From a virus (Duplodnaviria; Caudoviricetes), in the IMG/VR virus record IMGVR_UViG_3300026549_000041, positions 79,101 through 143,100 of that record: 64,000 nt of DNA, one strand, 5' to 3'. The notes beneath the pieces were generated by a model that made no database searches, had not been told where the DNA came from, and saw only the letters and a program-made list of their open reading frames with translations. This document shows, one piece after another, positions 2,633 through 50,800 of this stretch. The translations under genes and the position numbers were made by a program. Position 1 is the stretch's first letter. The number at the start of each line of letters is the position of its first letter.

Positions 2633-2800
2633 ATGTTGGAAATTTTAGGAGAAGAGTGTGAACTGTTAAAGATTTGCAATTGTAAAACAGCGGCGTGTCG
2701 AGTTAGTCCACCAGATGAAGGGTGCTATTATTATAGATATTTTAAAAAAATAATTGAAAGAGTTGAAGAAATAAAAAATAAAGAAGGTAATGATACATGA
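2633..2800 (+). CDS. small Cys-rich protein (55 aa), not in ORF track
   Basis: GAGGT RBS, MLEILGEECELLKICNCKTAACRV...; stop overlaps the dnaE start (ATGA). Confidence 0.6.
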   Translation: MLEILGEECELLKICNCKTAACRVSPPDEGCYYYRYFKKIIERVEEIKNKEGNDT

Positions 2801-4127
2801 GTTATTATAGTCTGCATTGTCATACGGAATACTCAAACATCCGTTTTCTCGACAGCACAAATAAACTAAAAGATTTAATTGACACAGCCATTTCTCTCAA
2901 AATGAAAGGAGTGGCTGTATCAGACCACGAAGCTCTTTGTGGATGGATTAAAGCAATTCAAATTCAGAAGAAACTTAAAGAACAAGGTTCTGATTTTCGA
3001 ATATTTCTTGGAGATGAAATTTATTTAGTTGATTCAATTGAAGATGTAAGAGACAACTATATTCCTAGACAAACAAAATTTTATCATTTTATTTTAATTG
3101 CCAAAGACGAAATTGGTGGTAAACAGATTCGTCAAATTAGTTCTAAAGCATGGGAAAATAGCTTTTATACTGGAAAAATGTGTAGAACTCCTATTGCGAA
3201 ACATCAATTAGAAAGCATTATTGGAGATGAAAAAGGACATATAATCGCACAGAGTGCATGTATCGGATCAGAGTTAGCACATTGGATACTTCAGGATAAT
3301 CCTATTAAGTGTTTAGAATTTATTGATTGGTGTCAGGATATCTTTTTGCCTGAAAATTTTTATTTAGAAATGCAACCTAACGATTGTGATGAACAGGTTA
3401 GAGTAAATCAGGTAATAATTAAAATAAGTGAACAATTAGATATTCCTTACATTATAACAACTGATGCTCATTATTTGTCTGCTGACCAAAGAGATGTTCA
3501 TACTGCTTATTTAAATAGTAGAGAAGAAGATAGTCGTGAGACTGGAGAATTCTATAGAACATGTTATCTTATGGATGCAGAAGAAATTCATCAATGGATG
3601 GATAAACAAATTGGTGCAGATAAAGTTGATATCGCTTTAGATAATACTTGTAAGATTGCTGATAAGATTGAATTTTTTGATTTGAATCATACTCAAATTG
3701 TGCCTAAAGTGCCTATTCCCGAATTTGAAATGAAACATTTTTTTTCAGAAGTTTATGATGAATGCGAGTATATAAAAAAATTTGCTTATTCAGATGATAT
3801 TCATGATAGGTATTTTTTATATTTAATTGAAAAAGGATGGTTGGAAAAAGAGTATAACGAAGATTTATCTAAAGAAGAAATAAACAAAATGCTGCATCGT
3901 ATTGATGTAGAATTAAAAGCTGTATGGTTATCTAGTGAAAATATACATGATAAAATTTCAAATTATTATATTACCGCATTATTTATTGAACAAAAAATAA
4001 TGTGGGAAGATGCAGAATCTTTGGTAGGTGTATCTAGAGGTTCAATTGCATCCTTTTATACAGCTTATTTGATAGGTCTTCAGCAGATAAATTCTTACAA
4101 ACAAAACATTCCATATTGGAGACACCT
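2797..4127 (+). CDS. dnaE: DNA polymerase III alpha (family C), exon 1 (PHP domain to ...IPYWRH-L)
   Basis: LHCHTEYS, SDHE, TTDAHYL and SRGS motifs. Frame stops right after WRH; exon ends in U (CAC CT|). Confidence 0.9.
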
Positions 4128-5255
4128 TAAATAATAATATTTCCTAAGTTTACTTGCCTTATAGAATGAGGTGAGTATGTTGAATGAAATAGATTTGAAA
4201 ATGATTACCATGAAGGAACTTGGGTTTAGTAGTGCAGAAATTGCGCAAATGTTTGGACGAAGTAAAAGTTCTGTCATTTGTGATGTACGTAATCAAACTG
4301 AACAAAAGATTGATAAAAGAATTTGGACAGTTGACGATTTGTTCTTTCATAATATTGATTCTGAAGCTAAAGCTTATATATTAGGTTTTATAATGGCTGA
4401 TGGGTGTATATATGATAAAAGATTAGAAATAACATTACAAGAGTCTGATAAATATATAGTGCAATTTTTCTTAAATGCGATGCATAGTAATAATCCATTG
4501 AGAAAAAATATTATTGAAGATAAAATATATTATAGTTTTGCGATACAAAGCGAACAGGTAATTGTAGATTTATATAAATTAAATGTTACAGAAAAAAAAT
4601 CTTTAACATTAAATCCTCCTCCAGATTATCTAATTCCTGATAATTTATACCATCATTTAGTAAGAGGATTTTTTGATGGCAATGGGAGTATATGGTTTGA
4701 TAAATCTGTTAACAATTATAAAATGAATATAGTATCTACAAAACAAGTATTAGAACATTTCAGAGATAAAATGGGATGGAGTCATAATACAATCAGACTA
4801 GCAAATAAAAAAGATGTACCTGTATATAGAATGGATTATAGTGGGAATAATTTGGTTGCAAAATATTTAAATCAGCTTTATGATGATGCATCTATTTATT
4901 TAAACCGAAAATATATTAAATATATAGATTGTAAAAATAGAAGTGGTAAGTAAATAAGGAAATATTATTAAGGGCTGTGCTTTGGTAACAAAGTATTGCG
5001 TAACTGGTGAACTTTTATCTAAAAGGTGTATATTCAACGCAATCAGTAAATACAGGAAATGGTATTGAATGAATATGCTAACAGGGGAAGTCTAAGTTTG
5101 AAAAAATACGATAATCCTGTGCCAAGCTTGTTTTATAACAAGAAGGTCAAACGACTATTATGTAGGGTGGAGATAGATACCATTCGAAGCGCCAGTTCTC
5201 CTTATATAAGGAGTGAGATATAGTCTAGCCTTTATAGAAATATAAAGTATAAGCG
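4128..5255 (+). mobile_element. group I intron dnaE-I1 (1128 nt) with LAGLIDADG ORF
   Basis: U|TAA 5' junction and terminal G; core elements ACGACTAT (~5151) and GATATAGTC (~5217). Splicing gives CT|A = Leu and restores WRHLHESRPEMP. Confidence 0.85.
4171..4953 (+). CDS. intron-encoded double-motif LAGLIDADG homing endonuclease with N-terminal HTH
   Basis: YILGFIMADGCI and LVRGFFDGNGSI motifs; ORF bracketed by an imperfect inverted repeat (4132-4158 / 4945-4970). Confidence 0.85.
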   Translation: MSMLNEIDLKMITMKELGFSSAEIAQMFGRSKSSVICDVRNQTEQKIDKRIWTVDDLFFHNIDSEAKAYILGFIMADGCIYDKRLEITLQESDKYIVQFFLNAMHSNNPLRKNIIEDKIYYSFAIQSEQVIVDLYKLNVTEKKSLTLNPPPDYLIPDNLYHHLVRGFFDGNGSIWFDKSVNNYKMNIVSTKQVLEHFRDKMGWSHNTIRLANKKDVPVYRMDYSGNNLVAKYLNQLYDDASIYLNRKYIKYIDCKNRSGK

Positions 5256-5280
5256 ACATGAAAGTAGACCAGAAATGCCT
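5256..5280 (+). CDS. dnaE: dnaE exon 2 (25-nt micro-exon, (L)HESRPEMP)
   Basis: A CAT GAA AGT AGA CCA GAA ATG CCT supplies the conserved R..MP segment preceding the catalytic DxD. Confidence 0.85.
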
Positions 5281-6309
5281 AAGTAACATTGGGCTTTGGT
5301 GATGAACCGTGCCAACGGGTGTACAGTTTTAAATTGTGCTAACGGTATCAGTTAAATAAGCAAAGATGAATACGCTGACTAAGAGAGCCTACGGTCTTTC
5401 GTAAGATAGCAGGTAATACCGTGCGAAATAATTATCTGCTCTATAATTTCTAAAAAGGAGGAAATTATATGAATGGAGATTATAGAGTAATTGAATTAAC
5501 TAATAATATCAATAATAAAAAATATATTTTAATTACACAATCAGACCTTAAAGATGAATATTTTAAAGATGAAATACTAAAAAGATTAATTACTATTGCC
5601 CTTCCAGAAAATGTATCAGAAGAAGTATTGATATCTGGTACTAAAGAAGAATGTTATCAATATTATAATCAGTATAGAAGTGATAATAGAGTTATATATA
5701 ATCCTGAATATTACAATATTCCAGAATCACAATCTGAAATTGAAGATTATCAATTATATATTGATAAAATAAATAAAGAAAATTATAAACAATGGAGGCG
5801 TAATAATAATTATAAATATCAGACAGAACTTTTTAAACAACGACAAAGTGTGTATTCTAAAGGTGAAAACAATCCAATGTATGGTAAAAAGCATTCTGAA
5901 GAATCAAAAAAGAAAATGTCTGAAAATCGTAAAGGTCTTACTTGTGGAGAAAAGAATGGTAATTATGGTAATACAGGAGAAAAAGCAAAAAATGGAAAAC
6001 CTGTTTATCAATATGAAGATTCTGATATGACCAAATTAATTCATAGATTTAATACTATGGAGCTTGCTTTAGAGTATTTAGGATTAAAAGGTCATTCAGG
6101 AATAATAAAAGCAATTAAAAATAAAGAATTATATAAAGGATATTATTGGAGCAGATAAGGAAACGTGTAACGACTATTCCGTAAGGAAGTACAATCAGAG
6201 ATAGGCACTGATTGGAAGTGTCACCACTAGCACCATTAGTGCTAGGAGAGATAGTCTAGACCCGCTGTTAAATCAGCGTTAAAGTACCAAGAAATTGGGG
6301 GTGTGACAG
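5281..6309 (+). mobile_element. group I intron dnaE-I2 (1029 nt) with GIY-YIG-like/NUMOD ORF
   Basis: CCU| paired by IGS GGGC; AACATT pairs with exon-3 GATGTT (P10); ACGACTAT (~6170) and GATAGTC (~6250) P7 elements; terminal G. Splicing gives EMP|DVDID. Confidence 0.85.
5469..6158 (+). CDS. intron-encoded degenerate GIY-YIG-like protein with NUMOD3 and NUMOD1-like DNA-binding repeats
   Basis: YRVIELTNNINNKKYILIT N-terminus, GENNPMYGKKHSEESKKKMSE (NUMOD3), KPVYQY...YKGYYW C-terminus; AAGGAGG RBS. Confidence 0.7.
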   Translation: MNGDYRVIELTNNINNKKYILITQSDLKDEYFKDEILKRLITIALPENVSEEVLISGTKEECYQYYNQYRSDNRVIYNPEYYNIPESQSEIEDYQLYIDKINKENYKQWRRNNNYKYQTELFKQRQSVYSKGENNPMYGKKHSEESKKKMSENRKGLTCGEKNGNYGNTGEKAKNGKPVYQYEDSDMTKLIHRFNTMELALEYLGLKGHSGIIKAIKNKELYKGYYWSR

Positions 6310-8862
6310 GATGTTGATATTGATTCAGAAAAATCTAAAAGACAAGCTATCATTGAAGCAACAAGAAAGAATTTTGGTGAGGACAAGGTTCTAAATATTT
6401 GTGCATTTAGAACAGAGGGAGCAAAATCAGCTATTTTAACTAGCGCTAGAGGATTGGGAGTTAGTAATGATGAAGCCCAATATATTGCTAGTTTAATTCC
6501 TTCTGTACGTGGAAAATTAACACCGCTTTCTGTAATGGTATATGGAGATGAAGATAATAAACCAAATATAGAATTTATTAATGAATGTAAGAAATATAAT
6601 AGATTGATTGAAACGGCATTAAGTATTGAAGGAATGGTTTGTGGAAGAACAATTCATGCATCGGGAGTTATCATTTTTGAAAATCCCTATTATGAATTAA
6701 ATTGTATGATGAAAGCCACTAACGGACAGCCAACAACCCAATGGGACATGGATGATTCAACATATGCTGGTGGATTAAAATATGATTATTTAACAATAAA
6801 TAATCTTGATGCTATGCACCAATGTATGAATTTGTTAGTTGAATATGGTTATATTGATTGGCAAGGTTCATTATTAAAAACTTATAATAAATATTTTCAT
6901 CCAGATGTATTAGATTATTCTTCTGAAAAAATGTGGAAAATGGCTGAAAATCATGAGATAGTAAATCTTTTCCAATTTATGACTGACGTTGGTGCTCAAG
7001 CTGTAAAAAAAATCAAACCACGTTCACTTACAGAACTTGGTGTTGCTAATGCAGTTATGCGTCTTATGAGCGGAGAATCTGGTGGGGAACAGCCTCTTGA
7101 TATATATGTTAAATATAAAAATAATATTCAAGAATGGTATGATGTAATGGATAAATACCATCTGACCTCAGAAGAAAAAGATATAATAAAAAAATATCTT
7201 GAACATGCTTCTGGTATGTCTACTATGCAAGAAGATGTTATGAATCTTTCAATGGATAAAAATATTTCTAACTATTCGATGAAAGAAGCGAATGTTCTTA
7301 GAAAACTAATTGCAAAAAAGAAAGTTGCTCTTCATAAACAGGCAGAAGAAAACTTTTATAAAAAGGGTTTAGAAAATGGAACATCTCAAAATATGTTGGA
7401 TTATGTATGGAAAGAGTGTGTTAAACCTCAGTTGCAATATTCATTTTCTCTCCCTCATATCCTTGGATATTCAACAATTGCTGTTCAAGAAATGAATATG
7501 GCATATAAATATCCTATTATTTATTGGAATTGTGCCAATCTTATTGTTGATAGTATGTCTGACGAAGAGCTTGATGGCAGCACGAATTACGGTAAAGTAG
7601 GTATTGCAATTAATAATATGATCCAATCTGGTATTAATGTAACCCCTCCTTTAATTAATGAAGCTAAGTTTGGATTTACTCCAGATGAAAAAAATAATCG
7701 TATTATCTTTGCATTAAAAGCTATGAATGGTATTGGAGATGACATCGCTCAATCAATTATTCAAAATCGTCCTTTTAAATCTATGGAAGATTTTGCTACA
7801 AGAATGATTGATACAAAGATTATTAAAAACTCACAAATGGTTAAGCTGATAAAAGGTGGTTGCTTTACTGAGATTGATTCTGAAGATAAAACAGAAACCA
7901 TGAAGTGGTATTTGTCTAAGTATTGCATTAATCCTGTTGCTAGTTTGACGCTATCTCAATTTAATAAAATTGTAGAGCATAACCTGATACCAGAAGAGTT
8001 AAATCTTGCAGTTAAAATGGTTAATTTTAAAAAATATGTTCTCGATGATGAAGGATTATACGAAAAATGGATTGACCCGACTAAACCTAAAATTCCAAAA
8101 AAAGGTTATCATGATGGACATTATATTTTAGATGAACCTTCTCAAGAATTTTTTAAAGAACATTTTACTGAAGATAGTATTGTAGATGTAGTTGGTGGAT
8201 TTTATGTGTTATCTGAAAAGAAATTCATTAAAGAAATTGATAAGAAGATAGAACCGTTAAAAGAATGGTTTAATTCAGATGATGCTATTAATAAATATAA
8301 TCAAGCTTTATTTGACGAGGCGTGGAATAAACATGCAAATGGTACAACTGATGCTTGGTCTATGGAATCTTTAACATACTATGATAAAGACCATGAATTA
8401 AAAAATACTCCTGAAGAAATATATGGTATTGTTAATTTCTTTGAACTTCCAGAAGAACCGATTGCATATGAATTTTATACAAGATATGTGGATGGTAAAC
8501 CAAAAGCAGTACCTAAATATACTATTTTTCGTATTGCAGGAACGGTTGTTCAAGCTGATAATAATCATCATTCTGTTGCATTATTAACTACACATGGACT
8601 TGTAAATATTAAATTTAGTAAAGGTCATTATGCTTTTTATAATAAAACAATTTCAGAAATTGGTGAAGATGGTAAAAAGAAGACAATTGAAGGTAGTTGG
8701 TTAAAACGTGGAAATAAATTATTAGTAAGTGGTTATAGAAGAGGAGAACAATTTATTCCTTGGATATACAATGACACAATTTATAAGCATCGAATTAATT
8801 TGATTGAAAAAATAAACGAAGACGGAACATTAGAATTAAAAGCTGAAAGAGCAAAGGTATAA
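6310..8862 (+). CDS. dnaE: DNA polymerase III alpha exon 3 (DVDID catalytic motif to C-terminus); spliced product 1302 aa
   Basis: In frame with ORF 6454..8862; HASGVII, KYDYL, LFQF, YSFSLPH and GIG (HhH) motifs. Confidence 0.9.
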   Translation, partial: DVDIDSEKSKRQAIIEATRKNFGEDKVLNICAFRTEGAKSAILTSARGLGVSNDEAQYIASLIPSVRGKLTPLSVMVYGDEDNKPNIEFINECKKYNRLIETALSIEGMVCGRTIHASGVIIFENPYYELNCMMKATNGQPTTQWDMDDSTYAGGLKYDYLTINNLDAMHQCMNLLVEYGYIDWQGSLLKTYNKYFHPDVLDYSSEKMWKMAENHEIVNLFQFMTDVGAQAVKKIKPRSLTELGVANAVMRLMSGESGGEQPLDIYVKYKNNIQEWYDVMDKYHLTSEEKDIIKKYLEHASGMSTMQEDVMNLSMDKNISNYSMKEANVLRKLIAKKKVALHKQAEENFYKKGLENGTSQNMLDYVWKECVKPQLQYSFSLPHILGYSTIAVQEMNMAYKYPIIYWNCANLIVDSMSDEELDGSTNYGKVGIAINNMIQSGINVTPPLINEAKFGFTPDEKNNRIIFALKAMNGIGDDIAQSIIQNRPFKSMEDFATRMIDTKIIKNSQMVKLIKGGCFTEIDSEDKTETMKWYLSKYCINPVASLTLSQFNKIVEHNLIPEELNLAVKMVNFKKYVLDDEGLYEKWIDPTKPKIPKKGYHDGHYILDEPSQEFFKEHFTEDSIVDVVGGFYVLSEKKFIKEIDKKIEPLKEWFNSDDAINKYNQALFDEAWNKHANGTTDAWSMESLTYYDKDHELKNTPEEIYGIVNFFELPEEPIAYEFYTRYVDGKPKAVPKYTIFRIAGTVVQADNNHHSVALLTTHGLVNIKFSKGHYAFYNKTISEIGEDGKKKTIEGSWLKRGNKLLVSGYRRGEQFIPWIYNDTIYKHRINLIEKINEDGTLELKAERAKV

Positions 8863-8863
8863 A

Positions 8864-11113
8864 ATGAGTGTAAAAGTTAAAGCTGAAATAGAAGGAATTA
8901 GATTTTATAGAGACCAATGGGGCATCATTGTATGCTCCATTGATAAAGTATTAAAAGGTGATTTTATCGGTGATAAAAATGGAATGATTTTTAAAGGCAC
9001 TATGCCTGAACCAGTATTGGGTGCGACTTATATAATCATTGCTGATTATGTAGAAGACCCTAAATGGGGTAGACAATATAATATTAAATCAATTTATAGT
9101 GATGTGTCATTTGATAAAAATGATAAAAGCGGTAGACAAAAATTTTTGCTCAATCTTTTTACTCCTAGTCAAGTACAAGCTATGTATGATGTATATGATG
9201 ACCCATTTTCTGTATTAGATGCAGAAGATGTAGAAAAGCTTGTGCAAATTAAAGGCTGTGGTATTAAAACAGCAGATTTGTGGATTCGTAAATTTAAAAA
9301 GAATATTAATATTGCAAGAATTTTTGTTGAGCTTGAAGATTATGGTTTAACTAATAATATGATTAAGCGTTTGATGGACAGATATAATTCACCAGATTTA
9401 ATTATAGAAAAAGTTAAAACAAATTCATATGTTCTTGTTAATGAAGTAGATGGCATTGGTTGGAAAAGAGCAGATGAAATTGCACTTGCTGGTAATATCA
9501 AACCTGATAGTCCTATGAGAATTGGTGCTTATATAGTTTATTATCTTAATTTATGTGGTGAAAATGGTAATTCGTGGATTACTCCAGATGAATTATTGGG
9601 AGCTATTCTTGATAATCTTGGGGAAGAAATCCCCGATGAAAATATTACTATGGCTATTAGAGACCTTGGTAATAAATTATGGTGGAATGAGGATAAAGAT
9701 AAGATTGGCTTATCTAAATATTATAAGATTGAATATAGAGTTGCTGAAGAGTTGATTAGAATCAGAAATGCTGAATCCAATATTTATTGTAATGATTGGA
9801 GAATGCGTATTGAGCATCTTGAAAGAGTACAAGGATGGGATTTTACTGAAGAACAGATGAATGGTATTGAAGCTGTTTTAAATAATAATGTTACTGTTAT
9901 CCATGGTCTGGCAGGAACTGGAAAAACTTCTGTAGTTTCAGGCGTTCTTGAGGCTCTTAATAATTATTCAAGTGTAATGTGTGCATTGTCTGGAAGAGCC
10001 GCTTCAAGAATGAGTGAGATTACTGATAAAACAGGATATACAATTCATAGACTTCTTGGTTATCCTAAAGGGGCAAATGAATATCAAGGATTTGAATTTA
10101 ATCAAGATAATAAATTACCTTATAATCTATATATTCTTGATGAAATTTCAATGGTCGATGCTAAAATCTTTTATTATTTATTAAGAGCAATTCCAGATGG
10201 TGCTAAATTAATTTGTCTTGGAGATTCGGGACAATTGGAAAGTATCGGATGTGGTAATGTAGCTTATGATATGATTCATTCTGCTGAAATTCCTACAATT
10301 GAATTAACCAAAATCCATAGACAAGCCGCTAAATCAGCTATTATTACACAGAGTGTCGCTGTTAGAAATAGTAAACAAATAGTACCCAAAGATTGGGTTG
10401 GCACTGAGACAAGAGGAGAACTTCAAGACCTAGAACTTCACTGTTATTCTGATAGTAGTAATACATTTTATGAAGTAATGGAAATTTTTTCTAAACTGAT
10501 GGCTCAAAAAGATTTTAATATTATGGATTGCCAAATTATTGTTCCAATTAAAACCAGAGGGGACGCTTGTACTTATAAAATAAATAATACAATTCAAGAA
10601 TTATATAATCCTGCTTCAAAGAATAAAAAAGAAATAACAAGGTTATCAAATAATAATCCTTTTATTCTTAGAGAAGGAGATAAGGTAATTAACACAGTTA
10701 ATAATTATAGACTACAAACCCCAATCTATAATGGTAATATTGGGACAATTAAATCAATCAGTTATAATGAAGAATTAGATTCAAGAATTATTACAATTGA
10801 TTTTATAGGAATTGGGAATGTCGATGTTCCCGAAGATGCATGGAATGGGATTGAACTGGGATATGCTATTACAGTTCATAAATACCAAGGCAGTCAGAGT
10901 AAATATGTGATTTTTGGTTTGGATTTTTCGTCATATGCTCTTCTCACTAGAGAGCTTGTTTATACTGGAATTACCAGAGCACAGAAAAAATGTTATCTAA
11001 TTTGTCAAACAGGGGCACTAAGATATGCAACTGCACAACAAGGTGTTTCTACAAAACAAACCCACCTTCAGGATTGTTTATATGAAGTAGCACATCCTAA
11101 GTTGATTTTTTAA
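8864..11113 (+). CDS. recD2: RecD2-like SF1B helicase
   Basis: HhH repeats, GLAGTGKT Walker A, DEISMVD, GDSGQL, IHRQA, YAITVHKYQGSQ, YTGITRA. Confidence 0.9.
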   Translation: MSVKVKAEIEGIRFYRDQWGIIVCSIDKVLKGDFIGDKNGMIFKGTMPEPVLGATYIIIADYVEDPKWGRQYNIKSIYSDVSFDKNDKSGRQKFLLNLFTPSQVQAMYDVYDDPFSVLDAEDVEKLVQIKGCGIKTADLWIRKFKKNINIARIFVELEDYGLTNNMIKRLMDRYNSPDLIIEKVKTNSYVLVNEVDGIGWKRADEIALAGNIKPDSPMRIGAYIVYYLNLCGENGNSWITPDELLGAILDNLGEEIPDENITMAIRDLGNKLWWNEDKDKIGLSKYYKIEYRVAEELIRIRNAESNIYCNDWRMRIEHLERVQGWDFTEEQMNGIEAVLNNNVTVIHGLAGTGKTSVVSGVLEALNNYSSVMCALSGRAASRMSEITDKTGYTIHRLLGYPKGANEYQGFEFNQDNKLPYNLYILDEISMVDAKIFYYLLRAIPDGAKLICLGDSGQLESIGCGNVAYDMIHSAEIPTIELTKIHRQAAKSAIITQSVAVRNSKQIVPKDWVGTETRGELQDLELHCYSDSSNTFYEVMEIFSKLMAQKDFNIMDCQIIVPIKTRGDACTYKINNTIQELYNPASKNKKEITRLSNNNPFILREGDKVINTVNNYRLQTPIYNGNIGTIKSISYNEELDSRIITIDFIGIGNVDVPEDAWNGIELGYAITVHKYQGSQSKYVIFGLDFSSYALLTRELVYTGITRAQKKCYLICQTGALRYATAQQGVSTKQTHLQDCLYEVAHPKLIF

Positions 11114-11166
11114 CAAGTATATAATATAATAAAATGTAGAAAGATATAGATAAGGAGTAAATTAAT

Positions 11167-12393
11167 ATGATTAAAGTAGAAAATACGGATGTATATGGTT
11201 TCCAACACGCTACAAAAGCAGCAAGAAATCCCATGAACAGTTGGAATAAAAGTGATAGCGATTATTGCGGAGATATCAAAGATTGTGACGGATGTCAATA
11301 TGCCGAATATCCTAATATTTGTAATAATCCAATTGCTGATGGAGGAGATTATGTTATTGGTAAAAATGATTTAGACCTTATGCAACGTTTGTACAAAGCT
11401 GGTACTGAGCATAGAACATATGCAAGAATGATTTATGTATGGATGGATATTATGGCACCTCTGTACTGGTGGAAAGAAATGGACAGATATACAGTTGGTA
11501 AGTCTCAAGTATCATGTAGTACTATGCATCGCCTAACAGAAAAACCGTTCGATGTTTCAGACTTTAGTTTTGAACATTTAATTGGGAAAGATGAACGTGA
11601 ATATTTTGACCCTGTTATTGATGATGTTGAAGAGGTGTGGAAAACCATAGAACAATATCCAAATTATATGGTGAGTAATTTAGGAAATGTTTGGAGTATA
11701 AGGCGCAAGAAACAATTAAAGCCCTGTGTTAATTCATCCAATTATAAAAAATATGTATTATCAGGTAAAAATGTATATGCACACCGTTTAGTAGCAGAAG
11801 CATTTATTCCGAATCCGAATAATTTACCAGAAGTGAACCATAAGGACGGAAATAAGTGGAATAATTATGTTGAAAATTTAGAGTGGGTTACAAAGAGCGA
11901 AAACGCTTTACACGCATTTGAAAATGGTTTAAGGACGATTGATGGGTATACACGATATAAGGTAGCACAGACTGCTCATAAGTTTTCAGCAAAAGATGTG
12001 GAAGATATAAAGATATTATTTGAAGATGGGTGTACTAAAAGGGAAATAGCTGAAAGATATGGTTGTTCAGATTCTGTTATTTATAATATTGTAAATGGAA
12101 ATACATATATTCAGATTGATTTATCTCCGTATGATGTTGCACGTTTAACTGTCGAACATCTAAATCAATTAAGAGATATTTATTTAGAGACAAAAGATAA
12201 AGAAGATTGGTGGCAGTTAATTCAACTTCTCCCTTCGTCTTACAACCAAAGACGCACTATTTGTATGTCTTATGAGGTTGTATTTAAAATCATCAAGGAA
12301 CGTACAGGACATAGACTTGATGAGTGGAATGAATTTGTAGAGATTCTTAAGAATCTTCCTTATGTAAAAGAAATTATGGGTATTGAAAAATGA
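11167..12393 (+). CDS. ThyX-like (flavin-dependent thymidylate synthase fold) phage protein with an in-frame NUMOD4-HNH-HTH insertion
   Basis: RNPMNSW, APLYWWKE, SCSTMH N-part and LLPSSYNQRRT...HRLDEW C-part flank EVWKTI..YPNYMVSNLG and HRLVAEAFIPNP..VNHKDGNK.NN.VENLEW. The ThyX relationship is a tentative recognition. Confidence 0.65.
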   Translation: MIKVENTDVYGFQHATKAARNPMNSWNKSDSDYCGDIKDCDGCQYAEYPNICNNPIADGGDYVIGKNDLDLMQRLYKAGTEHRTYARMIYVWMDIMAPLYWWKEMDRYTVGKSQVSCSTMHRLTEKPFDVSDFSFEHLIGKDEREYFDPVIDDVEEVWKTIEQYPNYMVSNLGNVWSIRRKKQLKPCVNSSNYKKYVLSGKNVYAHRLVAEAFIPNPNNLPEVNHKDGNKWNNYVENLEWVTKSENALHAFENGLRTIDGYTRYKVAQTAHKFSAKDVEDIKILFEDGCTKREIAERYGCSDSVIYNIVNGNTYIQIDLSPYDVARLTVEHLNQLRDIYLETKDKEDWWQLIQLLPSSYNQRRTICMSYEVVFKIIKERTGHRLDEWNEFVEILKNLPYVKEIMGIEK

Positions 12394-12560
12394 AAATAAG
12401 AAAACCATACCAGAATGATATTGTGATTTTTATGTATATTGCTTTTGTAATATTAGCAGTGTTGATAATAATTTTTAGTATAATAGGAGCTTTTAAAATC
12501 CTTACATCAGACCTTCCATTTTGGATGAAATGGTTTTTATTAACTAGTGGAGGAAAATAA
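12390..12560 (+). CDS. small membrane protein (56 aa), not in ORF track
   Basis: MKIRKPYQNDIVIFMYIAFVILAVLIIIFSIIGAF...; ATGA-coupled to the upstream gene. Confidence 0.55.
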   Translation: MKIRKPYQNDIVIFMYIAFVILAVLIIIFSIIGAFKILTSDLPFWMKWFLLTSGGK

Positions 12561-12561
12561 A

Positions 12562-12798
12562 ATGACATCATGTAAATTTGAATTCCCTTGTAGCCCAAAT
12601 GACACAGTTTATTTAGTAACTTCATATGGGGTTGTTCGATTATTAGTTATGCAATTACAAATAGTGCGAGATATTAATAATGAACTTTCTCCTGTGGTAT
12701 GTTTTTATAATTATCCTTTTATTACATTAGAAGAAGCAAATAAGTATCTATTTGATACATATGAAAAAGCTCAGAAAGCATATGAGGAAGAGATTTGA
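12562..12798 (+). CDS. hypothetical protein
   Basis: GGAGG RBS before ATG 12562. Confidence 0.6.
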   Translation: MTSCKFEFPCSPNDTVYLVTSYGVVRLLVMQLQIVRDINNELSPVVCFYNYPFITLEEANKYLFDTYEKAQKAYEEEI

Positions 12799-47439: not shown

Positions 47440-47871
47440 CTTTGTATTTATTTTAGTTCGCTACACTAAAACGACTGATAAACAGTCCTCTATATTTCTA
47501 CAGAGAATAGACTATATCTTTATGTAAATATTATATTCATGTTTAATTCTTCATTTATTTCATTATAAAATTTTGATTTGGTAAAATCATCCATATTATC
47601 CTCCGATTAATATATTTAAATATAATATTTACATAATCACCTTTTCCAACTACCAATCGCTTGTAGTTGTACTTCCTTGCGGAATAGTCGTTGAGCGTTT
47701 TCCTATTCGGAACTTCGCTGCTGATTGCCCATTGTTACATTTATATATTTTTTAAACATTCACATTTAGATTTATTTCATTCTTATGTTGTAGTATATAT
47801 AACTTTAGGGGTTTCCAGCAATTAAATGATTTATTTTATATACATCACTGTATATAGACACTATTTTATTA
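47440..47871 (-). mobile_element. group I intron TMP-I3 (432 nt) with HEG remnant
   Basis: GACAU| pairs with IGS GTGTC; AAAATA pairs with exon TGTTTT (P10); CAACGACTAT / AAGATATAGTC core; terminal G. Confidence 0.85.
47520..47594 (-). pseudogene. 24-codon remnant ORF in an intron peripheral loop
   Basis: GGAGG RBS then MDDFTKSKFYNEINEELNMNIIFT*; enclosed by a 17-bp inverted repeat TATGTAAATATTATATT. Confidence 0.5.
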
Positions 47872-50800
47872 ATGTCACCCTTTTTAAGATTTACAAATTC
47901 AGCACCATCATCACCAACAGTAAACCAATTACCATCACGGACAACTATCTCAGTTCCTAACTCACCTGTAAGGGCAGTTTGGTCATCGGGAAGTCCCCAT
48001 TTACCACCAGCATATGCATGATTAGAAACTACAGAGCCTTTAACAAATGCAGTACCATATGCATGAGCTGTACCATTTGCAAAATGCGCCCTATAATTTG
48101 ATGCTAATTCATTAGCTTTGTTAATAGCTGATTGAATACCAGATTTAAGAGCACTTAACCCAGAAGAAGAAAAATTAGCAACAACACTTACAGTTTTACT
48201 TTTAACAGAATCAATTGCACTTTTCATAGCTTGCGCATCATTAATTACTTGATTTTTACCTGCAAGCATAACACTAGGAGTGGCTTTTTTATTATCTAAT
48301 TCTTTTGTCTGTTTATTTACATCATCGCTACCTTTTTTAAATTCTTTTGAATCCATCCCAACTTCGGGTTTAGGATTTTGTTTATCAATTTTCTTATTCT
48401 CTTCTTGAACATGTTTTGCACCTTTATCAAAAGGAGAAGTGTCCATTGACGTAGTTACAACCTGATTAACTTGTTCTTCTGATATGGTTTTATTAATTTG
48501 TGTATTTGTTGTTGTGGTATCTTTAGGCTTGGGAGTATCGCCAGTTGTTTTTACATTTATATGAAGCTCTCCCTTTTTGGCTAATTCTAATAATTCTTCA
48601 CCAGTTGCGTCTGGTTCAAGCCCCCATTTTTGTTTAACTTCTTCAGGTAAATTAGCAATTGTGTTTAATTCTTCTTTAAACTCTTCATCAGCATCCCAAT
48701 TAAAATGAATATCTTTATGTTGAGCTGCATAATCTAATTTAGAATTAATATCATCAACAACTTTTTCAGCTGCCATAAATTGGTCAACTGTAATCGAATC
48801 ACCACTAATATTTGATTTATTTAATAAATTTACTCTATACTGTAATTGTGCTAATAATTGGTCTAAATATTGAACTTGAGTATCATCTACATTTGGACGT
48901 ATTTCTTTTAATGTGTTTATTTTTTCTTGTAAATAATCAACATTGTTTAATAACATGGGGTCAATAGTAAACTGTTCTGAAAAATCAGTTTTCCCCGCTT
49001 CTTTTGAATAAGAAGACAATTTATTTACAATATCATTAATATTCTTTTTAGATGTTTCTAATTCTTTAGAATCAAATACTTTAAAATCAAATATTTTTCC
49101 TTCAACAAATTCACGTTTCTTCGCAGCCATAAAATTTAATAAATCAGCCACTTGTTGAAGTTTTTCTGTTTTTACTTTAGGGTCTAGACTTGTGTCTTCA
49201 GCAAGAGATTGTTGATAACCCATGAGCTTCTGCATTGCATCATCAACTTCCCTTTCACTTTTAGGGTCTAAATTAATTTTTAATTCAGTACCAGTAGTTT
49301 CTTCTAATGCTTCTTTAGCAGAAATAGCCTTTTCTTTTAATTGCTCTAAAGAGAACAAAGGCTGGTCTAAATGAATTTCAAAGCCAGCATCAGCAGCTGC
49401 TCTTAAAATAGAATGGACACTTTCAATATCCATGCCTAACATTTCGGCTATTTGATAATCACCATTTTCAGTGAAATCGAACCAACCTTCTTCAAGATTG
49501 ACAAATTCTTTTCCAACTTCTTTTTGCTTATTTTGAATAGCATCAAAGAAATTCCAAACACCTTGAGAAGTAGTTTTACCATTAGCATCAACCGTAAAGA
49601 AATCTGCTATAGAATAACCACCAGTTCCTTCTATGTCTTTTGTAACTTCATCAAATTTTTCTTTTATTTTTTCAGCAGAAGAAGTCCAAGCATCCCAATC
49701 TTCATTTTCATCATTAAAAATTAAATCAATCCAACTTCTAGTCTTTTCACCAGCCCAACCTCGTTCAAGCTCATCTTTAACAGCGTCATATCCACTATAA
49801 ACGCTATTATACATTTCACGTTCGCCCTCACTATTCTGTTTAGACAACCATGTTTGATAAGCTGAATTAGCATTATTAAATGTCATTAATTGTTCATTTA
49901 ATTTATCAATATTATCTTGAATAGCCTGTCGCTGTTGTATAAAACCAGAGGTGTCTTCACCAGCTGCTTTAGCCTGAAGATATCCTTCTTGTAATTTATC
50001 TAATGCTTGATATTGTTCGTACATAGAAGAAGCATAATCAGCCTTGACCATAGCTTCTTGTTCTTGTCTTAATAAATATGCCCCTTGAGTATTTAAATGA
50101 TAACCATTTGCAGTTCTTTCTAATACCGAATCAAGATTATCACCAAAAGCAGCTCGTAATTCAGTTAATGTTTGTTCTGTTAAACCTGTACCTTTTGCAG
50201 ATTCAGCAAGAGCAGTATTTAATGTATTAAGAACTCCTATGGCACTTTCGACAGAAGAAGAAAACGCATTATATGAGTCAGAAGCCATATATGCAACATC
50301 AGCTGCATCTCCGTGAACAATTCCAGCAGTTACTAATGCATTAATTAAATTATCTGCATCAGCAGTAGTCCATCCCATTGCATCCATTAATGCCTTTAAT
50401 GCATCAGCATATTTTCCACTTGCATAAGTATTATCTTTAAGTGTCGCCTGAATATCAACTTTATCTGGATTTAATTTATATAATTTTTCGGCGGCTTTAT
50501 AAGCTTTCTTTTGTTCTTTGGTTAATTTACTTTGGGCTTTAGCATTATCTTTAAGAGTCTTTTTATCAGTCCCTCCAAATAATCCTTCTTTTTCTTCAGG
50601 CACAGGGATATCTTTAAATAATTCAACTGTATCTCTAAATTTATTTTTAGCGTCAACTAAAGAAGTATCTATTTTATCAAATAGAAGAGCGAATTGTCCA
50701 TTATCGCCAACTTTAAGAAAATCATTTTTAGCTTTAGTCGCTTCATCAAAGGCTTTACGTGCTTCATTAATTTTTTGAGTATCACCAGTAATATAAGCAT

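Follow-up and report, generated by a model that had tools for sequence, protein, structure and literature searches.

A putative splicing-free homing endonuclease cassette residing in frame within a ThyX-fold gene of gut phages

Homing endonucleases are conventionally taught to spare the genes that they invade by residing in an intron, in an intein, or between genes. The T-even phages carry free-standing seg and mob genes, including Aeh1 mobE in nrdA and T4 mobA in gene 60, which do without splicing, cut at a site apart from that of insertion, and co-convert flanking sequence; these are separate open reading frames (ORFs) that lie between genes or split the host gene (PMC2988022). A non-splicing homing insertion, the ShiLan type, is described in actinobacteriophage DNA methylases (PMC11855218; PMC9957025). 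It has a homing-like patchy distribution, is open in the host frame, lacks intein and intron signals, and is proposed to be tolerated as a loop; its HNH nuclease is out of frame and separately translated, and the insertion lies between conserved codons. In other phage methylases such as Taj_79 (PMC9957025), a second LAGLIDADG domain is present in frame as a domain of its own; the enzyme is predicted to be intact, no splicing element was detected, and the monophyly of the nine sequences is not rejected (vertical inheritance).

We describe here a gut phage locus in which a NUMOD4-HNH-HTH module lies in frame within a gene whose product is predicted to have the ThyX fold. The cassette resembles the seg and mob genes in the absence of splicing, in a cut site (inferred here) apart from the insertion site, and in flank co-conversion, but it leaves the host gene as one ORF. 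It differs from the ShiLan type in that the nuclease itself is an in-frame folded domain, placed in a hypervariable loop and accompanied by replacement host codons on both sides, and from the Taj_79 type in that it is an HNH element known from ∼100 alleles of at least four lineages, and monophyly of the hosts of the closest cassettes is rejected. The intron-encoded HNH nicking endonucleases of the I-HmuI type have the NUMOD4-HNH core in common with it, although the ThyX cassette has no group I intron, is fused to its host at both ends, and has a different C-terminal HTH. No ThyX or thymidylate synthase with an in-frame NUMOD4-HNH is described in the literature that we searched, most subscription papers being outside that search. 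A sequence-only reading of this locus had put it forward as a candidate for an undescribed system, which is slightly too strong given the published non-splicing precedents (PMC11855218; PMC9957025).

The window, by which we mean the whole 64,000-nucleotide stretch analysed, is part of a 143-kb virus record (96% complete) of a gut phage. The gene is one uninterrupted ORF within a block of phage replication and nucleotide-metabolism genes, with dnaE pieces and RecD2 upstream and a guanylate-kinase-like gene and nrdD downstream, and there is no step in GC content at the ORF. The same reading had placed a stop-free, in-frame NUMOD4-HNH-HTH fusion in a ThyX-like protein with the insert at 11581–12125; the fusion holds by the ORF, by Pfam and by fold, and the coordinates hold as codons 139–320. 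The features are listed in Table 1. The upstream dnaE is itself in pieces (2797–4134 and 6454–8862), between which lie a weak LAGLIDADG-like ORF (4171–4953) and a NUMOD3 ORF (5469–6158), and these interruptions (2797–8862) are likely to be nuclease-bearing introns missed by Rfam. The other HNH genes of this genome are ordinary free-standing ORFs, as are the nearest non-ThyX viral HNH matches.

Table 1. Coordinates of the ThyX-fold gene, its inserted nuclease and the host codons that travel with it (positions in the window).
Feature	Position	Strand	Basis
ThyX-fold host protein with in-frame homing endonuclease, single ORF of 408 aa	11167..12393	+	ORF calling, Pfam, structure model
Resident host N-terminal part, codons 1–115	11167..11511	+	Near-identity to syntenic empty allele L082 (98% nt over 11090–11529)
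Upstream host codons travelling with the cassette, 116/122–138; family-A signature R122, L123, F135 (empty alleles: K, I, H/C); left exchange boundary within 11512–11529	11512..11580	+	Comparison with L082 and other alleles
Putative immune version of the inferred target, codons 119–124, immediately following the serine of the active-site loop; ACN ATG CAY AAR ATH retained in empty alleles	11521..11538	+	Allele comparison; target role inferred
Inserted module, codons 139–320, in place of a short variable loop (∼9–30 codons in aligned empty alleles)	11581..12126	+	Alignments
NUMOD4 DNA-binding motif, aa 156–196	11632..11754	+	Pfam E 1.3e-10
HNH nuclease motif HNH_3, aa 203–247	11773..11907	+	Pfam E 4e-12
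Helix-turn-helix HTH_7, aa 275–310	11989..12096	+	Pfam E 2.9e-5; structure model
Downstream host codons travelling with the cassette, 321–341, its own version of the long ThyX helix	12127..12189	+	L082 comparison, structure models
C-terminal part of the resident host; R379 and H382 invariant	12190..12393	+	96.5% to L082 over 12190–12533

An AlphaFold2 model of the whole protein (mean pLDDT 87) matches H. pylori ThyX over residues 2–406 (Z 14.3, rmsd 2.9, 186 aligned) and I-HmuI (PDB 1u3e) over residues 156–258 (Z 15.4, rmsd 1.6). The model of an empty allele, one without the cassette, also has the ThyX fold (Z 13.1, rmsd 3.1, 185 aligned), and the host part matches the solved ThyX structures compared with Z of 11–14 at 11–20% identity. 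The NUMOD4-HNH core is related to I-HmuI in sequence as well (phmmer E 5.6e-13), and where I-HmuI has an Asp ahead of its HNH His, the window protein has Asn at the aligned position. In empty alleles the insertion site is a short loop of variable length ahead of a long helix. In the model of the window protein, the NUMOD4-HNH-HTH domain protrudes as a loop from the ThyX fold, after the active-site segment and before the long helix. Two copies modelled with FAD as a complex scored 0.39 against a mark of 0.42, and this result is not used as evidence.

The host protein was identified as ThyX only by the fold search, sequence searches of PDB, NCBIfam and Pfam with the host part having given nothing useful. 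The family is PHROG 6721, a large phage family of unknown function. The window allele itself has no Pfam or NCBIfam match, whereas relatives give weak Thy1 matches and some filled relatives reach the Thy1 cut-off. The RHR motif, which binds FAD in ThyX (PMC6514825) and is there followed by a Ser and an Arg, is missing from both filled and empty alleles, which instead have DRYT or DTYK followed by SCSTMH; this segment we take to be the counterpart of the RHR region, matched to ThyX sequences by eye. No ThyA or Thy1 match was found in the 96%-complete source genome. In sister phages with RecD2 89–95% identical, the slot after RecD2 is occupied by another gene, one that Pfam recognises as Thy1 (L442 5585–6133; L444 and L445 4784–5404), and it is possible that this replacement represents an escape from homing. 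One filled allele follows FolD and precedes dUTPase. The fold, the weak Thy1 matches of relatives and the genomic slot all recall ThyX, although the family lacks the RHR motif and is only 11–20% identical; the host protein is likely to be a divergent flavin-dependent thymidylate synthase, albeit without activity data. The argument on the element requires only that the host protein is kept functional.

Comparison of alleles shows that the mobile unit is ∼660 bp (about 11515/11530–12189) and includes altered host codons on both sides of the nuclease. Outside this unit the window matches the syntenic empty contig L082 at 98% upstream and 96.5% downstream; inside it the two are diverged, and L082 has ∼165 bp in place of the 660 bp. 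Filled alleles of distant hosts (L083 and L085) show the mirror pattern, with mostly 70–100% identity per 10-codon bin inside the cassette and mostly 40–80% outside. From these sharp mosaic boundaries it follows that the cassette takes in host codons 116/122–138 and 321–341. Another pair of filled alleles, L003 and L006, do not differ over ∼245 codons that span the cassette, and to either side their host codons have diverged. The family-A signatures R122, L123 and F135 are present in 41/47, 47/47 and 47/47 alleles respectively, whereas empty alleles have K122 (289/303) and I123 (281/303). Family C keeps the wild-type upstream codons and has changes at codons 349–350; over all lineages, the lineage-specific changes are at codons 119–124 and 349–352. 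In L213 (2826–3045), family-B flanks are joined in frame and the nuclease is deleted; we interpret this single case as a loss-stage remnant, showing that the nuclease can be lost in frame and leave the putatively immune flanks behind.

No Hint or intein family was found in the window protein by Pfam at E≤0.1, and the edges of the insert have no conserved pair of an initial Cys or Ser with a terminal His-Asn, nor are they conserved as splice residues. Rfam gave no intron match at E≤5 in 11000–12600 and none in 20 related loci; it does detect a group I intron elsewhere in the window (47488–47881, minus strand, E 6.4e-10), between two long minus-strand ORFs. Rfam silence alone is weak evidence, since Rfam missed probable nuclease-containing introns in the split dnaE and in another ThyX-like locus (L404, described below), and for this reason RNA constraint was tested directly. 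Not one of 23 four-fold third positions is invariant among nine family-A cassettes, synonymous sites vary freely along the entire cassette (pS 0.32–0.85), and the cassettes give only a weak consensus RNA fold, whose covariation term over 711 columns is −0.57 kcal/mol. A HINT domain needs more than 100 residues and a group I core is ∼200 nt; only ∼17 and ∼10 codons of the insert lie outside the nuclease domains, and there is therefore no room for either.

A stop codon after the nuclease is absent from every cassette lineage, and the nuclease frame runs on into host sequence at either end, both in the window gene and in 31/31 filled loci, although an additional internal start is not excluded. 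Protein searches can return in-frame fusions only; the DNA scans gave 31 intact filled loci and none that was split, a small sample. Scans for promoters and terminators showed no excess over shuffles. An intein is rejected, since NUMOD4, HNH and HTH explain the insert both by sequence and by model, and, in the absence of transcript data, a recognisable group I intron core is rejected by the lack of an Rfam match, of room beyond the nuclease, of invariant four-fold sites and of covariation support. Neither is it a free-standing homing endonuclease ORF, with its own start and stop, nor a ShiLan-type element, its nuclease being in the host frame. The element thus lacks the defining features of the intein, intron, free-standing and ShiLan classes, as far as these can be judged from sequence and model.

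The dereplicated host alleles comprise 98 filled and 303 empty, with filled alleles over-represented owing to the queries used. Broad unselected scans, which sampled the loci only in part, found the cassette in 1/595 genome loci (mostly Clostridia assemblies) and 4/570 metagenome loci, less than 1%. At least four cassette lineages (A, to which the window belongs, B, C, and at least one more) occupy the same loop, all of them NUMOD4/HNH-HTH. A search for longer forms gave 34 large inserts at this loop, all 34 of them HNH, and neither another nuclease type nor an intein was present among them.

In a host-part tree built without the cassette, the window is nested among empty alleles (SH-aLRT 95, 97, 98), and forcing together the hosts of its six closest cassettes is rejected (p-AU 1.6e-7); the nearest empty alleles of this 46-row tree were chosen on purpose, which biases its count of changes, and only the nesting and the AU test were used. 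A 401-allele host tree has 49 filled/empty changes. Host and cassette distances are weakly correlated (rho 0.22–0.43), and sister hosts often carry different families, such as P0020 (A) with P0081 (C) and P0057 (A) with P0089 (C), with support of 0.99. Some family-A cassettes belong to large phages with dnaE, and others lie in loci whose replication genes are of the DnaB or IstB type. The cassette thus spreads horizontally between distantly related phages, occupying one locus sporadically with co-conversion of its flanks. The origin of the lineages is less clear; a free tree scatters them among other HNH domains, although a single clade is not rejected (p-AU 0.47, only 105 columns).

Most of what had been claimed from sequence alone is borne out. 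The host is ThyX-like, by fold and not by sequence profile, and without RHR; the proposed tolerant surface loop is a loop of variable length, with both parts folding in the model; the stated lack of group I core room and of an intein signature is upheld by Rfam, Pfam, edge conservation and synonymous variation; and the predicted homologs without the insert exist, the sporadic distribution conflicting with the host tree. An HNH domain in all homologs, or detection of HINT, had been named as refuting, and neither was seen. The motifs FSFEHL and TVEHLNQLRD had been taken as the host boundary, and this failed, both flanks belonging to the mobile cassette. That the protein is bifunctional and unspliced remains an inference without enzyme, nicking or RNA data.

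The nuclease is under strong purifying selection: when the window is compared with related alleles, for which dS is near 1, dN/dS is ∼0.03–0.07. HNH residues N224, H225, N237 and N246 are 99–100% conserved in the 98 filled alleles, and the motif is intact in 120/123 filled alleles. Residues conserved in the host part of empty alleles are retained at 0.955 in filled and 0.977 in empty alleles (50/51 in the window). The travelling flanks keep host-invariant F128, D132, F133, S134, L332, N333 and R336 at 99–100%, and dN is far below dS in the host codons that the cassette carries. Half of the family-B alleles have Ser in place of K103, a residue 99% conserved in empty alleles. In L086 (233–235), a close filled allele, conserved W101 is replaced by TGA, which could be a nonsense mutation, an assembly error or recoding.

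The likely explanation, in our view and with strong comparative support, is a splicing-free homing cassette with its target in conserved codons beside the loop, although nicking, an unprocessed product and enzyme activity are all inferred, there being no RNA, protein or activity data. The fusion protein would be made whole with both halves working, and in a cell with two phage genomes its nuclease domain would nick the empty allele, by analogy with I-HmuI and the T4 Mob enzymes (PMC2988022). Given how variable the loop is, the target presumably lies outside it; lineage-specific changes suggest that it is conserved codons 119–124, ∼45–60 bp upstream, whose alteration in cassette-bearing alleles would make them immune. 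In family C the changed codons 349–350, with wild-type upstream codons, suggest a different target. Recombinational repair may then copy the stretch between the nearest conserved blocks (the SCSTMH and TKDK/WWQ regions), so that the nuclease arrives with ∼40 replacement host codons; the outcome is shown and the mechanism inferred. The nuclease may later be lost in frame with the immune flanks left behind, as in the one case of L213. Such an element would resemble a free-standing homing endonuclease that cuts at one site and inserts at another, but it would reside within its target gene. A bolder reading, to which we lean with only modest confidence, is of a widespread and actively spreading class of homing endonuclease with neither splicing nor a separate ORF, in which a nucleotide-synthesis enzyme stays active with the nuclease as a permanent part, and the nuclease cuts the conserved codons next to its loop and rewrites them as it moves, with lineages displacing each other at one locus and the full cycle of gain and loss visible.

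Three rival explanations can be considered. The best of them, still unlikely, is that a mobile cassette disables or impairs the host enzyme, the phage using bacterial thymidylate synthase and the disrupted gene being dispensable. In its favor, the gene is exchangeable among sister phages, L086 has its nonsense codon upstream of the cassette, and frequent homing into fresh alleles would also leave resident host parts looking intact. However, the cassette-borne host codons keep the host-invariant residues at low dN, in all 31 loci classed as filled the ORF continues into the C-terminal half of the host, which a dead gene would not need, and the ThyX fold is preserved in the model of the filled allele. 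Removal or bypass of the insert by some unrecognised means is very unlikely, be it a cryptic intron, ribosomal hopping, proteolysis, or an internal start giving a separate nuclease; some nuclease-containing introns do escape Rfam, but the codons beyond the Pfam domains are too few to hold a group I core or HINT, synonymous sites are free across the cassette, no lineage has a post-nuclease stop, and no splice-residue pair is conserved at the edges. Equally improbable is a domesticated fusion, in which the HNH-HTH benefits the phage by autoregulation or by cutting competitor phage DNA and spread by selection on ordinary recombinants; strong purifying selection, the few decayed nuclease copies and the precedent of intron nucleases that confer a competitive advantage (Goodrich-Blair and Shub 1996, cited in PMC2988022) speak for it, but a homing cycle fits the low prevalence (1/595, 4/570), the lineage-specific flank codon changes, the lineage replacement in sister hosts and the in-frame loss in L213, and homing is in any event consistent with competition against the empty allele.

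If the homing reading is correct, the ThyX cassette family represents a further route by which a homing endonuclease may spare its host gene, that of permanent in-frame residence in a tolerant loop, for which the evidence is ∼100 natural alleles, the empty sisters matched to them, and tests on trees. Apparently the selfish gene persists because it is tolerated as an extra domain, and it moves active-site-adjacent codons between very different gut phages. The arrangement bears on the possible origin of inteins and multidomain proteins, with a nuclease entering a gene before any splicing domain. It also draws notice to a large unannotated ThyX-fold family without the RHR motif; annotation pipelines would call such fusions merely HNH endonucleases.

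Several related loci have other arrangements. In L404 (1089–2147), a ThyX-like homolog is split in its active-site region by a 1-kb insert with a separate 246-aa ORF, nuclease-like by eye and with no Rfam intron match, and we regard this as a second, different element aimed at a ThyX-like gene. The ThyX-like proteins P0398 and P0415 have a ∼100-aa insert of no clear Pfam family in the N-terminal variable loop (after residue 37). Two tandem ThyX-like genes are present in L320 (2001–3462), and the sister phage L445 has a separate NUMOD4-HNH-like ORF (332–1003) in its dnaE region.
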